Shown: in pieces, positions 1-6,164 of the stretch
How positions within the stretch are numbered: position 1 is the first letter of the stretch
Layout: every line of letters begins with the position of its first letter
NCBI RefSeq assembly: GCF_054482595.1
Contig: NZ_CM137008.1
Direction: 5' to 3' (one strand)
Length of the DNA stretch: 64,000 nucleotides
The notes under the pieces: model-generated
What the model saw: the letters and a program-made list of their open reading frames with translations, nothing else
The model's database searches: none
What the model was told of the DNA's origin: nothing
Position numbers and translations under genes: made by a program

Positions 1-410
1 TCCCCTTTAAAAAATAAATATGTTCGCCCTTGATGCAGGATTAAATAGTTGTTATCAGGCGCCATTAATTTTTAGTTACATTAATGCAGAGCGAATACGG
101 GAATTGCGTTTTCTCATAATAAAATGTGATTTTACGCACATAAAATAGGGCTTAATGGCTGGCGTTGTTATTTGTGAAGATTTCATTGAAAATAAATAAT
201 AGCGATTTAATTGATTCTCTCCGAACTGAGATATAAATGGCGAATTTATGTTAATCTCATCACGTTTTTCATATTGTGATCCCCGGAACATATGGGAAAT
301 GCATATTCCCCTGTTTACGCAGTGAGAATTGCTCCAGAATACTCGTTACGCAGTTAAATTTGATTTGAATGATATGCTGTTATCAGCGACGTACGTCACA
401 GGAGTTTATA

Positions 411-1781
411 ATGCCAGGCAGTCAAAGTTCGGTATTTGATTCAGAATTGTATTCCTCTCTCTTCACGCAGCCGGAGATGAAATCAATCTGGTCCGATGAT
501 AATCTTCTTCGCTGTTGGCTGACCTTTGAAGCAACCATCGCGCATGTGCAGACTGAGTTAGGTATTATTCCCCCTGAAGCCGCCGCGGAAATTTCCGCCG
601 CCTGCCAGACGCTGAAAATAGACTGGCCGCGCCTCGCCAGGGAAACGCGTTCCGTCGGTATGGCGATTAAGCCTCTGGTTGATCAAATTGCCGATGCGGG
701 TTCCCCTTTGGTCAAAAAATACCTTCACTGGGGCTGCACGACTCAGGATCTGCTGGATACCGCCCTGGCCATGCGCATGAAGCAAACCCTGCAATTACTG
801 CGCAGACAGTTGGTGCAGTTGGGCGAAACGTTGAAAGCTATGGCGCTTGAGCACCGACATACGGTGATGGTCGCCAGAACGAATTCCGTCGATGCTTCCG
901 CCACGACGTGGGGGCTACACGTCAGCAGCTATCTGTCCGAGCTAACCCGCCACCTTCAGCGCCTGGATCGCCTCTACCCGGCAGCGACTACCGGCCTGTT
1001 TGGTGGCGCGGTCGGCAACCTGGCCTCCGTCGGCAGCCAGGGAATGGCGATACGTAAGCAATTAATGGGCGCGTTAGGGTTGTCATGCCCTGTCGGTATG
1101 AGCAATGCCAGTCAGGATCATGTAGTCGAAGTGGTGCAGTTTTTTGCCCTGGTGCATGGCACGCTGTGTCGCATGGCCAACGACGTTGAAACGCAGGGCC
1201 GCACGTCCGTGGGCGAGTTGCGTGAAGGCGAAGGCGGTGGAGGATCCAGTACGATGCCACACAAGACGAATCCCCGCGCGAGCAATATGATCCAGACGCT
1301 TTCCCGCATGGGCTGGAACTATGCCTCTGGTGCAACCAGCCTTCTCGATCAGTGTGACGTGCGTGCTGCCTCCGCCCGCGTACTCAACTGGACGCTGGTA
1401 CCGGAGTCGGCGCTGGCCTTGTCGGCCAGCCTTGAACGTGCTGTCCGGTTAATTACGCATCTGGTGGTGGACAAAGAGAAGATGCGCAGCAACTTCGCCG
1501 CTTCAAAGAACTTCATTATGTCGGAATCCGTCACCATGGTATTGGCTGAGAAAATCGGGCGTGGTGCCGCTTACGATCTGATGAAAGCGTTATTAAAAGA
1601 CGCAGACGGCTCTAAAGACCTGTTGCAGTGCATGCTGGAAAATCAGACCGTTATTGACGCGCTAACTGAGTCGGAGATTGTTGCTGCTTGCGATCCATTG
1701 TCTTATCTGGGCTGCAATGACGCGCTGATCGAAGAAACCGTCATAGCCTTCGACGATTACATTCATGTCCGGACGGCGTAG
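411..1781 (+). CDS. Fumarate-lyase superfamily enzyme (adenylosuccinate lyase / 3-carboxy-cis,cis-muconate cycloisomerase-like)
   Basis: ORF 369..1781; likely start ATG 411 with upstream GGAG. Contains the class-II fumarase/aspartase signature GSSTMPHKTNP. Confidence 0.7.
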   Translation: MPGSQSSVFDSELYSSLFTQPEMKSIWSDDNLLRCWLTFEATIAHVQTELGIIPPEAAAEISAACQTLKIDWPRLARETRSVGMAIKPLVDQIADAGSPLVKKYLHWGCTTQDLLDTALAMRMKQTLQLLRRQLVQLGETLKAMALEHRHTVMVARTNSVDASATTWGLHVSSYLSELTRHLQRLDRLYPAATTGLFGGAVGNLASVGSQGMAIRKQLMGALGLSCPVGMSNASQDHVVEVVQFFALVHGTLCRMANDVETQGRTSVGELREGEGGGGSSTMPHKTNPRASNMIQTLSRMGWNYASGATSLLDQCDVRAASARVLNWTLVPESALALSASLERAVRLITHLVVDKEKMRSNFAASKNFIMSESVTMVLAEKIGRGAAYDLMKALLKDADGSKDLLQCMLENQTVIDALTESEIVAACDPLSYLGCNDALIEETVIAFDDYIHVRTA

Positions 1782-1834
1782 TCCAGAGCCATTCGCTTCC
1801 TGCCGAAAGCAGGTGTGCCGACAGGAAGCGGTCA

Positions 1835-3005: not shown

Positions 3006-4382
3006 ATGACCGCATTTGTAATCGCAATCGTGATCACTATCATTGCAGCATGGTTAATCATCAAGAACTTCCAACCTCAGACGGTATTGCTGCTGGCTGG
3101 TTTGTCTTTACTGACCATTACTGCTGTCTTCTATCCTGATAATAGCATTCTCTACGGTAAGGCTAAATCAACCGGTTCCACCTGGCTGGATATCTTTACG
3201 TTTGCCAAAAATTCACTCTCCACACAGATCGCCGGTATCGGTTTGATCATCATGGCCGCGGGCGGCTTTGCCAGTTATATGGATCATATCAAAGCCTCCA
3301 ATGCAATGGTGAACGTCTGCATTCGTCCCCTGCAAATCATCAAGGCGCCCTACGTGATCCTGGCTGTGGGGTATATTTGCGCACAGTTGCTGCACGTCGC
3401 GATTTCCAGCGCCGCCGGGCTGGCGATGATGTTATTAGTGACGTTCTTCCCGGTGTTGGTACGACTGGGTGTCAGTAAAGCAGCGGCGGCGGCGATGATC
3501 GGTCTGTGCGCCTTTATGGACTTAGGCCCGGCGGTCGGCACGGCCAACCTGGCGGCTAAACATGCCGGTATGGAAGCCGCCGTTTACTTTGCGCACTATC
3601 AGATGCCGGTGGCTGTTGCCGTTATGTTGGTAGTGTCGGTGCTGATTTTCTTTACCGCCAAATATTATGACAAGAAAGATGGTCACGTGATGACCAGCCA
3701 GGTGGCGGACGACACGACGCCTCAGAGTGAGGATAGCGAAAAAGTGCCGGGGCTGTATGCTTTCCTGCCTGTATTCCCTGTGATTCTGGTGCTGGTCTTT
3801 AGCCCGTTGGTCATCTCCACCATTAAAATCGACGTAGTTACCGCCATGATTGTCGGCACAATACTGGCGTTCGTCTGCGAACTGTTCGTTAAACGCGACT
3901 TCCGTGCCTGCTGTAAAGGTGTACAGGTATTTTTTAAAGGAATGGGCGGGATGTTTACCAGCGTGGTTTCATTGTTAGTGTGTGCGGATATCTACGCGCA
4001 GGGAATGCAAAAAATCGGCGCGGTGGATTACCTGTTGGAGATGGTGCAGAACGCGGGCTTTGGCTTTGCCAGCATGACCGTGGTGATGACGCTGCTGGTA
4101 GGTATAACCGCTGTACTGACGGGCTCCGGGGTTGCGGCATTTTTCTCTTTCTCCGGCATGGCGCCTGCTATCGCCACTAAATTTGGCGAAAGCGCTGTAC
4201 ATATGATTCTGCCGATGCAACTGATGGCTGGAATGGGACGTTCCATTTCTCCCGTCGCAGGGATCATCATTGCGGTCAGCAAAGCCGGTGAATGTTCACC
4301 GTTCATGATAGTGCGCAGGACCTTAATTCCGGCGCTCGGCGGCATGCTTACCATGTTGCTGGCTAACTACCTGTTGTTCTGA
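3006..4382 (+). CDS. Anaerobic C4-dicarboxylate transporter, DcuC family
   Basis: 458 aa polytopic membrane protein with DcuC-like size and hydrophobicity pattern; immediately upstream of the malic enzyme gene. Confidence 0.6.
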   Translation: MTAFVIAIVITIIAAWLIIKNFQPQTVLLLAGLSLLTITAVFYPDNSILYGKAKSTGSTWLDIFTFAKNSLSTQIAGIGLIIMAAGGFASYMDHIKASNAMVNVCIRPLQIIKAPYVILAVGYICAQLLHVAISSAAGLAMMLLVTFFPVLVRLGVSKAAAAAMIGLCAFMDLGPAVGTANLAAKHAGMEAAVYFAHYQMPVAVAVMLVVSVLIFFTAKYYDKKDGHVMTSQVADDTTPQSEDSEKVPGLYAFLPVFPVILVLVFSPLVISTIKIDVVTAMIVGTILAFVCELFVKRDFRACCKGVQVFFKGMGGMFTSVVSLLVCADIYAQGMQKIGAVDYLLEMVQNAGFGFASMTVVMTLLVGITAVLTGSGVAAFFSFSGMAPAIATKFGESAVHMILPMQLMAGMGRSISPVAGIIIAVSKAGECSPFMIVRRTLIPALGGMLTMLLANYLLF

Positions 4383-4469
4383 AGGACGTGTCGTCAGTGC
4401 GATGCCATTAAATCCAGAGAGCCAGGCGAGAGTACTTTGTTGTCAACATCAGTTAGCCGGACGTAAGTT

Positions 4470-6164
4470 ATGACCCACGAAATCACAGACAATTTACTTT
4501 ATATCCCTTATGCAGGCCCGGTATTACTGGAATCCCCGCTGCTGAACAAAGGCAGCGGGTTTACTGAAACAGAACGCGCAATGTTTAACCTGAGCGGGCT
4601 GTTGCCCGCAGCGGTTGAGACGATTGAAGAGCAGTCGCTGCGGGCCTATCAGCAATTCCTGGATATCAAGTCGGATATTGCCCGTCATATCTTTCTGCGC
4701 AATATTCAGGATACCAACGAGACGCTGTTTTATCACCTTGTGAGCAAGCACCTGGTGGAAATGATGCCGATTATTTATACCCCGGTAGTCGGACATGCGT
4801 GTGAACACTTTTCCGACATCTATCGCCGCGCCAGGGGATTATTCATCGCCTGGCCGGACCGGCATATGATCGACGAAATATTGCATAACGCCACAAAGCA
4901 GAATATTTCGGTGATTGTCGTCACTGACGGGGAGCGGATCCTCGGCCTGGGCGATCAGGGAATTGGCGGCATGGGGATTCCTATCGGCAAACTTTCGTTG
5001 TACACCGCCTGCGGTGGTATTAAGCCGTCGCATACGCTGCCAATCTTATTGGATGCGGGAACGAACAATTCCCAATTGCTCAATGACCCTTTGTATATGG
5101 GTTGGCGTCATCCGCGCATCACCGGCGACGCATATTTTGAGTTCGTCGAGATGTTTATCCGCGCGGTTAAGCGCCGTTGGCCGGACGTGCTATTACAGTT
5201 CGAAGATTTTGCCCAACAGACGGCGATGCCGCTGCTGACCCGCTATCGTGATGAGATCTGCTGTTTTAATGATGATATCCAGGGTACCGCAGCGGTGACT
5301 TTGGGATGCCTGATGGCGGCAAGCCAGGCCTCCCAACGTCGGTTATGTGACCAAACGGTAGTCTTCCTGGGCGCGGGATCGGCCGGATGTGGCATTGCCG
5401 AACATATCGTCACGCAGATGGTGGCTGAAGGGTTGACCGATGAGCAGGCCCGTTCACGCATTTTCATGGTGGATCGCTTTGGCCTGCTTACGGACGATCA
5501 AACTAATCAGGCTCCTTTCCAGTCACCGCTGGCGCAGCCGCGGTCGCGTTTGGCGAGCTGGGGCGGTCAGCAGGAGGCGTACTCGCTGATGGACGTGGTA
5601 AGCCAGGCTAAACCGTCCGTTCTGATTGGCGTCAGCGGGCAGCCAGGACTATTCAGCGAAGCGGTGATCGGGGAAATGTATCGTCACTGTTCGCAACCGA
5701 TAGTTATGCCACTTTCCAACCCAACCTCGCGCGCAGAGGCACGGCCGGAAGATATTCTGCGCTGGACCGATGGTAACGCGTTAATCGCCACCGGCAGCCC
5801 GTTCGAGCCGGTAAGCCACGGGGGAAAATTGTATCCTGTTGCACAATGCAATAATGTTTATGTCTTCCCTGGTGTGGGTCTCGGCGTGATGGTTAGCCGT
5901 GCCACACGCGTCACGGATAACATGATGATGGCGGCCAGCCGCACGCTGGCAAGTTGTTCGCCGCTGGTGCGCGACGGGCGTGGTCCGCTGTTGCCCAGTA
6001 TTAATGACATCCGGCAGGTGACGCAGGCCATCGCCCTTGATGTTGCTCTGGCTGCTCAACGTGATGGCGTCGCCGTAAATATCCCGCAGGAAACCTTGCA
6101 ACATAACATTTCGAGCGGATTCTGGGAGCCGCAGTATCTTCAGTACAAGCGCACCTCATTCTGA
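4470..6164 (+). CDS. NAD-dependent malic enzyme (MaeA/SfcA paralogue)
   Basis: 564 aa; malic enzyme N-terminal and NAD-binding regions ([26 protein letters not shown]). Confidence 0.85.

Follow-up and report, generated by a model that had tools for sequence, protein, structure and literature searches.

A rare, mobile six-gene module around an isolated lyase clade in Escherichia coli: a candidate catabolic regulon

The left end of a 64,000-nucleotide (nt) stretch of E. coli DNA (contig NZ_CM137008.1, RefSeq assembly GCF_054482595.1), called the window below, carries four intact open reading frames (ORFs) at positions 411-6164, which encode a lyase, a regulator of the RpiR/SIS type, a carrier of the DcuC family and an NAD-malic enzyme. 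They make up the right-hand 6.2 kb of an 8.1-kb unit of six genes, the other two of which, for a porin and a predicted hydrolase, lie to the left of the window. The module is rare, accessory and horizontally mobile in E. coli. Our overall model, to which we give even weight for and against, is a six-gene catabolic regulon for an anionic compound that would pass a dedicated porin, be de-esterified, imported and split by the lyase, and yield pyruvate by way of fumarate and malate. Each component family is a known one, and the layout is like that of other ordinary accessory catabolic operons on genomic islands; new here is that a lyase clade and an SGNH family, both uncharacterised, are joined in one conserved, mobile regulon with a defined putative operator.

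All coordinates are window positions, and negative values lie to the left of window position 1. The four genes within the window are as follows:

411-1781, plus strand: cytoplasmic lyase of the fumarase/aspartase superfamily, 456 amino acids (aa) (Pfam Lyase_1 and ADSL_C)
1835-2722, minus strand: regulator of the RpiR/MurR family with helix-turn-helix (HTH) domain HTH_6 and a SIS domain (Pfam)
3006-4382, plus strand: inner-membrane carboxylate carrier of the DcuC family, 458 aa (Pfam DcuC, 1e-76)
4470-6164, plus strand: NAD-dependent malic enzyme, a paralogue of MaeA (malic and Malic_M domains)

The longest ORF of the lyase gene opens at 369; we place the start at 411 because an AGGAG motif stands at 400-404 and RefSeq uses the same start. 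The regulator gene runs divergently from dcuC and converges on the lyase gene. The window edge cuts the module: the start codon of an OmpC-type porin gene (349 aa, minus strand) lies 9 bp to the left of position 1, and a DUF4886/SGNH hydrolase gene (254 aa) follows beyond it, both being syntenic in nearly all relatives. By blastn the unit held in common with Trabulsiella odontotermitis is 8,140 bp long, contains all six genes at 95% nucleotide identity and spans -1902 to 6236. An initial annotation, made from the letters of the window, had described a compact accessory module of four genes; it is compact and accessory as stated there, and horizontally acquired, with the count raised to six by the porin and the SGNH hydrolase outside the window.

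The lyase is the least familiar component. Pfam places it in the superfamily (Lyase_1 1e-40, ADSL_C 8e-11), and the GSSTMPHKTN signature loop, of the pattern GSSxMPxKxN, and the HWGCTTQD stretch, which fits the C1 motif H-x-G-x-T-[ST]-x-D, are invariant in its clade. Every NCBIfam match of the protein, by contrast, is under its curated cut-off. The top match is the XcbD model NF052536 (301 bits, cut-off 600), beside an ADSL subfamily model (301, cut-off 626); the PcaB models NF006554, TIGR02426 and NF004631 give 297/595, 259/356 and 193/371 (bits/cut-off), the PurB models TIGR00928 and NF006764 give 228/326 and 85/446, and the nitrosuccinate lyase model NF052556 gives 196/650. Class II fumarase is reached with 39 bits (cut-off 665) and the aspartase models with 22-49 bits. 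Among proteins of solved structure the best matches are Tad1 (2e-72, 35% identity, 248 bits), the unassigned entry 3c8t (239 bits) and CMLE (220 bits), followed by ADSL and CreD (5xny, 2e-40). The initial label of a fumarate-lyase-family enzyme therefore holds for the superfamily and fails for the fumarase/aspartase type, the protein falling on the Tad1/CMLE/CreD/XcbD branch.

A search of 1.84 billion cluster representatives returned the lyase clade as a single representative, at 59% identity and in a DcuC-lyase-RpiR context; beyond it, identity falls to 43, 39 and 37% in the next relatives. None of ten out-group representatives reaches a curated equivalog, and the contexts of these out-group lyases (37-43% identity) are mixed, with a sulfatase, an alpha/beta-hydrolase, TRAP and AcnX genes, an ABC transporter or short contigs. 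Two metagenome contigs carry Tad1-like bacterial lyases (37-38% identity, GPW motif) that adjoin sulfatase genes, one of them also adjacent to a TRAP transporter and an AcnX-type dehydratase; they possibly belong to an unrelated pathway. By these comparisons the clade is isolated, near Tad1, CMLE, CreD and XcbD and apart from the purine and arginine lyases.

In Ustilago maydis Tad1, mutagenesis has marked Q152, S320/S321, R360, T362, W365 and W369 as relevant residues (PMC11880804). The lyase keeps the equivalents of Q152, the SS loop (S320/S321), R360 and W369, and the arginine equivalent to R360 is the catalytic residue common to Tad1, CreD and CMLE (PMC11880804). Each of the 20 clade members has Ala for T362, Arg for W365 and Asp/Val for H358/E359. 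A further motif reads RTN(S) in the lyase and RSN, with the same Asn, in Tad1, whereas CMLE- and ADSL-like representatives have RTH, with His at that place. The His of the R-T-H-G-Q motif of ADSL is a general acid. Because of its family scores, structural matches and residue mapping, we assign the lyase provisionally to a sub-branch for good anionic leaving groups (carboxylate, nitrite, CO2, thiolate) and not for amines. The extra invariant Arg suggests a more anionic substrate. The protein has no signal peptide in its sequence.

The remaining genes of the window are more readily named. The carrier matches PF03606 with 258 bits over residues 5-452, and NF037994 and TIGR00771 with 420/100 and 312/187 (bits/cut-off); it is below the equivalog cut-offs of DcuC and DcuD (PRK10654, 328/513; PRK09804, 302/623), and a PDB sequence search with it gave no match. 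By sequence it belongs to the DcuC family (TC 2.A.61) and is the orthologue of neither E. coli DcuC nor DcuD. The malic enzyme matches PRK13529 with 852 bits (cut-off 326) and E. coli MaeA (6ags) with 836 bits over its full length (residues 9-563), the PLSNPTS stretch and another at the catalytic motifs being identical. It fails the malolactic model (560 bits, cut-off 850), and we regard it as a true oxidative decarboxylase of L-malate. The regulator has HTH_6 (PF01418, 1e-11) and SIS (PF01380, 4e-12) domains and reaches no named equivalog (MurR, HexR, AlsR) at its cut-off; a PDB sequence search returned a weak match confined to the HTH region. Its gene keeps synteny with the lyase and carrier genes at 20 of 22 loci. 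The DcuC-like transporter, the divergent RpiR regulator and the second NAD-malic enzyme of the initial annotation are all borne out by Pfam and NCBIfam matches and by gene orientation.

The two proteins encoded to the left of the window both have signal peptides in their sequences. The DUF4886 protein matches PF16227 with 39.9 bits (cut-off 26.7), and its AlphaFold2 model (predicted local distance difference test score, 89) has an SGNH-hydrolase fold. Foldseek matched the model to 4i8i (a DUF4886 protein), 4s1p, TesA and acetyl-xylan esterases including Axe2, that is, to generic SGNH esterases with no hint of the substrate. The blocks containing Ser (GNS), Asn (QGNS) and Asp-x-x-His (SDGxHPS) do not vary among 18 orthologues and correspond to S44, N107, D196 and H199. 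The protein is thus predicted to be an exported SGNH hydrolase. DUF4886 has no characterised member (PMC9487903).

The three transcription units of the module are preceded by one type of palindrome, TGRGAAA-N5-TTTCYCA, each time together with a CRP-like box. The elements within the window are:

1-410, no strand: divergent control region between the porin gene (off-window) and the lyase gene, with two palindromes and two CRP-like boxes whose positions are conserved over 17 loci
97-117, no strand: candidate operator palindrome O1, ACGGGAATTGCGTTTTCTCAT, porin-proximal (position weight matrix (PWM) score 13.6/13.7), at a position conserved in other genera
125-140, no strand: CRP-like box TGTGATTTTACGCACA, 7 nt from O1 and facing the porin promoter; the layout of box, 7 nt and palindrome is as at the dcuC promoter and is conserved in most loci
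249-264, no strand: CRP-like box TGTTAATCTCATCACG, upstream of the lyase-proximal operator; TGTTAA-N5-TCAC(A/G) occupies the corresponding position in 17 of 17 loci
292-312, no strand: candidate operator palindrome O2, ATGGGAAATGCATATTCCCCT, about 100 bp before the lyase start (PWM score 13.4); most Enterobacterales loci have it at a conserved position, about 117 nt before that start
2842-2857, no strand: CRP-like box TGAGATCATGCGCACA of the dcuC promoter; TG[ACGT]GA-N6-(G/T)CACA is found in 17 of 17 loci
2865-2885, no strand: candidate operator palindrome O3, GCGGGAAAAGCAATTTCTCAT, 7 nt downstream of the CRP-like box (PWM score 29.8)

In an alignment of 17 diverse loci, O3 stands out as the best-conserved block between rpiR and dcuC, with the consensus GTGAGAAAAnnAnTTTCTCAT. 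A PWM trained solely on the rpiR-dcuC sites of these loci has its top three matches in the 64-kb window at 97-117, 292-312 and 2865-2885, and it also locates two palindromes, at conserved positions, in the porin-lyase region of almost every locus. A variant of the module in Shigella and Citrobacter has a perfect-type CRP box, TGAGATCCTACTCACA, at the dcuC promoter. The FNR consensus, allowing at most one mismatch, was not found in the control regions of 16 of 17 loci. The anaerobic role suggested by the initial annotation finds no support in a control region of CRP-like boxes and a specific palindrome. A generic scan for promoters and terminators gave counts no higher than in shuffled sequence, and there was no Rfam match at E <= 0.1 within 1-7600. 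The motifs point to the RpiR protein as the presumed repressor acting at the predicted operators O1-O3, and to the six genes as one regulon that would be repressed by RpiR and activated by cAMP-CRP.

The module is conserved well beyond E. coli. In a cross-genus scan with one genome per species, the lyase was found at 60-98% identity in Trabulsiella, Enterobacillus, Lelliottia, Serratia, Limnobaculum, several Yersinia, and also in Providencia, Raoultella, Leminorella, Budvicia, Vibrio, Photobacterium, Thaumasiovibrio and Mannheimia. In tblastn searches with the six E. coli proteins, the order DUF4886, porin / lyase / rpiR / dcuC / malic enzyme was recovered in most Enterobacterales, with synteny seen in Yersinia, Serratia, Providencia, Raoultella, Citrobacter and Shigella boydii; Vibrio has the complete set, rearranged. 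The invariant core consists of the lyase, the carrier and the regulator, and minimal loci have no other enzyme nearby. Since the lyase is the lone enzyme of these loci, one enzymatic step must suffice to reach central metabolism.

More diverged and decayed forms also exist. In two loci of S. boydii and one of Citrobacter, the whole module occurs as a 65-67% variant, with mutS or sitABCD on one side and ygbA-fhlA on the other; in Salmonella this chromosomal position is that of Salmonella pathogenicity island 1 (SPI-1). The porin gene of the S. boydii copy is disrupted by insertion sequence (IS) elements, and this variant gave no megablast match in complete E. coli genomes. About 50 conjugative IncF plasmids of Klebsiella pneumoniae keep what a deletion has left, a DUF4886 gene and a dcuC homologue that are both truncated and directly adjoin (75% nucleotide identity); porin, lyase and regulator genes are lost from this remnant (pKP16-1, 8400-9995).

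Within E. coli, megablast matched the module in 79 of 5,426 complete genomes (1.5%), 63 of them at 99% identity or above and 16 as a second variant at about 85%. The initial annotation placed no such module at this position in K-12, and the distribution agrees: the module is absent from K-12-type genomes, and it is not a locus that all E. coli carry elsewhere with a known function. It occupies 78 chromosomal places and five on plasmids, and PLSDB holds four E. coli plasmids with it. The hosts among the 60 best records were poultry (about 30), a single dog-clinic clone (8), humans (about 13) and sheep (2), as raw counts. The 85% variant differs by 15% in its DNA, yet all six proteins are 90-95% identical in amino acids and the control motifs are kept; this argues for purifying selection on the two variants.

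The surroundings of the module in E. coli are those of a mobile segment:

6165-6236, no strand: right boundary of the block that Trabulsiella also has; homology with other genera ends at about 6171-6236 (blastn of the E. coli unit against three loci)
6281-6700, minus strand: AraC-type HTH fragment, 139 aa, beside IS1 and outside the conserved module (Pfam HTH_18)
6821-7588, plus strand: IS1 copy, the right bracket of the module, with a 100%-identical inverted partner to the left of the window in a colinear genome

Beyond 6236 the sequence is unrelated to the module, and the AraC-type fragment is absent from Trabulsiella and from the 85% variant. Two IS1 copies of 768 bp, 100% identical and inverted, enclose the unit in a genome that is colinear with the window over its first 27 kb; no 9-bp target duplication flanks this pair, the outer 9-mers being AAGGCGATG and GACACATCA. 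Strains differ by inversions of the IS1-flanked segment. The junction of the HTH fragment with IS1 is common to all three copies examined at 99% identity or above, which suggests a single acquisition followed by IS1- and plasmid-borne spread. In the window the module stands at the far end of an island that closes with a tyrosine integrase (45927-47192) and tRNA-Leu(CAA)/leuX (47379-47463). Because core genes (ahr, yjgR, lptFG, pepA, holC, valS) follow beyond leuX, the first 47 kb or so of the window is a leuX-associated genomic island. In dog isolates its left-hand 27 kb is part of a pheV island. The colinear genome and plasmids carry the unit with all of its six genes; in strain W2-5 the DUF4886 gene is truncated by IS1.

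How these genes may work together is set out here as a proposed route, in which we infer the order of the steps and the nature of the substrate. The dedicated OmpC-type porin would admit the compound, which is probably an esterified or conjugated polycarboxylic acid, to the periplasm, where the secreted SGNH-fold DUF4886 hydrolase would strip off an acyl or alkyl group. The resulting acid would be brought in by the DcuC-family carrier. In the cytoplasm, the lyase would cleave it without a cofactor to a C4-dicarboxylate, most likely to fumarate by beta-elimination of a good anionic leaving group, and a housekeeping fumarase would convert fumarate to malate. The NAD-malic enzyme of the module would then turn malate into pyruvate, CO2 and NADH, an irreversible step that would pull an unfavourable lyase equilibrium. 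The equilibria of such lyases favour the adduct (PMC9706529), which provides a rationale for a pulling decarboxylase. The RpiR/SIS protein would repress three promoters (porin-hydrolase, lyase, dcuC-malic enzyme) by way of the one palindrome, and cAMP-CRP would be needed for activation; the module would on that account be a catabolite-repressed pathway for an alternative carbon source.

Several points weigh against this proposal. About half of the loci have no malic enzyme and several have no porin, so that the steps assigned to these proteins are optional. The known RpiR/SIS effectors are phosphosugars, a poor fit to an organic acid. The pairing of repressor and operator and the CRP dependence are read from motif conservation, and the DUF4886 protein could be a transferase or another non-esterase. 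Fumarate as the product would be an extrapolation from the superfamily, and Tad1, the nearest solved relative, decarboxylates trans-aconitate and releases no fumarate (PMC11880804). The literature searched holds no paper or experiment on the cluster, and no substrate is identified there.

Tad1 suggests another reading, in which the module serves aconitate-type acids. The lyase would apply Tad1-like chemistry (decarboxylation, double-bond migration or lactone opening) to trans-aconitate, or to another substituted fumarate of that kind, brought in by the carrier. Release of the acid from its methyl or other esters would be the task of the esterase, and cataplerosis of the tricarboxylic acid cycle the only task of the malic enzyme. 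Tad1 is the best match of solved structure, its Asn (RTN/RSN) and the equivalents of Q152, R360 and W369 are present, an invariant Arg in place of the gatekeeper Trp365 is compatible with a more anionic substrate, and one Tad1-like bacterial relative adjoins a TRAP dicarboxylate transporter and an AcnX-type dehydratase. Against it, the activity-relevant T362/W365 (to A/R) and H358/E359 (to D/V) are altered in all 20 clade members; by these mutagenesis residues a Tad1-type trans-aconitate decarboxylase is rejected. An itaconate product would require Ict, Ich and Ccl genes, which are absent from every locus examined, and the bit scores of Tad1, 3c8t and CMLE (248, 239 and 220) are too close to discriminate. 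The known bacterial route for trans-aconitate uses an unrelated TarA isomerase with TarB (PMC11495376), and the TarA/TarB/TarR assimilation system is unrelated to the module. We consider an aconitate-type function unlikely.

A plain C4-dicarboxylate module is improbable. It would take up malate, fumarate, aspartate or tartrate, with the lyase providing a further fumarase or aspartase activity and the malic enzyme as the last step, in keeping with the DcuC family of the carrier, the close MaeA paralogue and a lyase fold that is the fumarase/aspartase fold. The scores of the lyase on class II fumarase (39 bits, cut-off 665) and aspartase (22-49 bits) place it instead on the Tad1/CMLE/XcbD branch, and a porin and a periplasmic SGNH hydrolase under the same putative operator serve no purpose in taking up free C4 acids. 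With three fumarases, AspA, MaeA/B and four Dcu carriers already in E. coli, conservation across genera would not be accounted for by a second such set; tartrate dehydratases are members of different enzyme families. Malate and tartrate, the substrates offered by the initial annotation, are unlikely because of the lyase branch, the dedicated porin and the periplasmic esterase. The core C4 genes of E. coli (dcuC, dcuD, maeA, fumABC, aspA-dcuA) resemble the module in carrier family and in the close MaeA paralogue; they differ in that its carrier is non-orthologous, that it has CRP-like boxes and a palindrome of its own with no FNR boxes, and that it occurs in 1.5% of genomes.

Decay offers a further reading: the genes may be a functionless remnant that travels with IS1 and islands and is not under selection for any function in E. 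coli. The IS bracketing, the IS1-truncated DUF4886 gene of W2-5, the disrupted porin gene of S. boydii and the K. pneumoniae plasmids with the DUF4886::dcuC remnant alone speak for it. We think it very improbable, given that the four window genes are intact and identical to proteins on hundreds of contigs, that the 15% DNA divergence goes with 90-95% protein identity and preserved control motifs, and that the complete unit persists in the colinear genome and on plasmids. Finally, automatic JGI/NCBI names on some members and a match to PRK09053 (297 bits) would make the lyase a true 3-carboxy-cis,cis-muconate cycloisomerase (PcaB) of aromatic catabolism, an identity effectively refuted by scores far under the cut-offs (297 against 595, 259 against 356), by the lack of pcaC, pcaD, pcaG and pcaH in any of more than 25 loci, and by Asn where the CMLE-like RTH motif has His.

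Three more named identities were rejected. Adenylosuccinate lyase (PurB) is below its equivalog cut-offs and the lyase has RTNS instead of RTH; nitrosuccinate lyase and XcbD are below both cut-offs (196/650, 301/600); and S-(2-succino) lyase (2SL) is set apart by gene context alone, the yxe-type context (acetyltransferase YxeL, ABC transporter YxeMNO, deacetylase YxeP) being absent from all loci.

These families still help to define the lyase by likeness and difference. With Tad1 (PDB 9h4e; PMC11880804) it shares the fold and sub-branch, the SS loop, the Q152/R360/W369 equivalents and the Asn of RSN/RTN; unlike Tad1, it is bacterial, is encoded in an uptake operon with a malic enzyme, carries T362A, W365R and H358/E359 changed to D/V, and has no itaconate genes beside it. 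PcaB/CMLE (PDB 1re5, 1q5n) lies on the same branch with similar scores, and CMLE adds or expels a carboxylate oxygen without a general-acid His for an amine; the module lyase differs in being under the equivalog cut-offs, outside a pca context and RTN rather than RTH. CreD (5xny), 2SL (PMC9706529) and XcbD are fumarate-releasing lyases for non-amine leaving groups and perform cofactor-free beta-elimination or addition on a succinyl/fumarate skeleton with nitrite or thiolate as leaving group, although the lyase scores far under the CreD and XcbD cut-offs. The 2SL clusters (yxe-type) include an acetyltransferase and an ABC transporter (PMC9706529), neither of which is encoded at the module loci.

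As a whole, the module has a partial parallel in a known nutrient locus. The Salmonella fra locus, for fructose-asparagine, combines a periplasmic hydrolase, a Dcu-type carrier, a cytoplasmic splitting enzyme and a SIS-domain protein. It differs from the module in its asparaginase, kinase and deglycase and its GntR-type regulator, and in having no lyase, porin or malic enzyme.

A more novel reading is that the lyase founds a new functional family in the Tad1/CMLE/CreD branch, cleaving a natural product not yet known as a bacterial nutrient, and that the six genes are a scavenging route spread by IS1, islands and plasmids among gut Gammaproteobacteria. We hold this tentatively, with confidence somewhat short of even. 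Candidate substrates would then be 2-substituted succinates with an O- or S-link, such as malyl ethers or glycosides, succinated thiols and oligo-malate esters, or else a substituted aconitate; the route would possibly give an edge in bird and insect guts. Finding the substrate would show what the isolated lyase clade, which is conserved in Enterobacterales, Vibrionales and Pasteurellales, does in the cell, provide the first function for a DUF4886 SGNH hydrolase, and account for a rare mobile trait of E. coli that is often found in poultry isolates. As it stands, the module is a well-defined target for phenotype screening and will not surprise a specialist.

The rest of the island carries further accessory genes. 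Autotransporter genes lie at 7595-11092 (minus strand, 1165 aa) and at about 24187-26874 (minus strand, about 895 aa); in the dog strains the second of these is followed by a locus with a PL8 lyase, GH88 and an aga-type phosphotransferase system, which is lacking in the window after 26925. Annotation of the colinear genome places, among IS fragments, an ArsR-type regulator with a permease and the periplasmic Cu/Zn superoxide dismutase gene sodC at about 14885-16345 and 18598-19122. By the annotation of a 100%-identical stretch of SM107, a complete DNA phosphorothioation cluster, dndBCDE, stands beside the dptFGH restriction genes (27725-32787 and 34563-42577). The same annotation places a phosphoethanolamine transferase gene, of a family relevant to lipid A modification, at 44104-45603 beside the island integrase.

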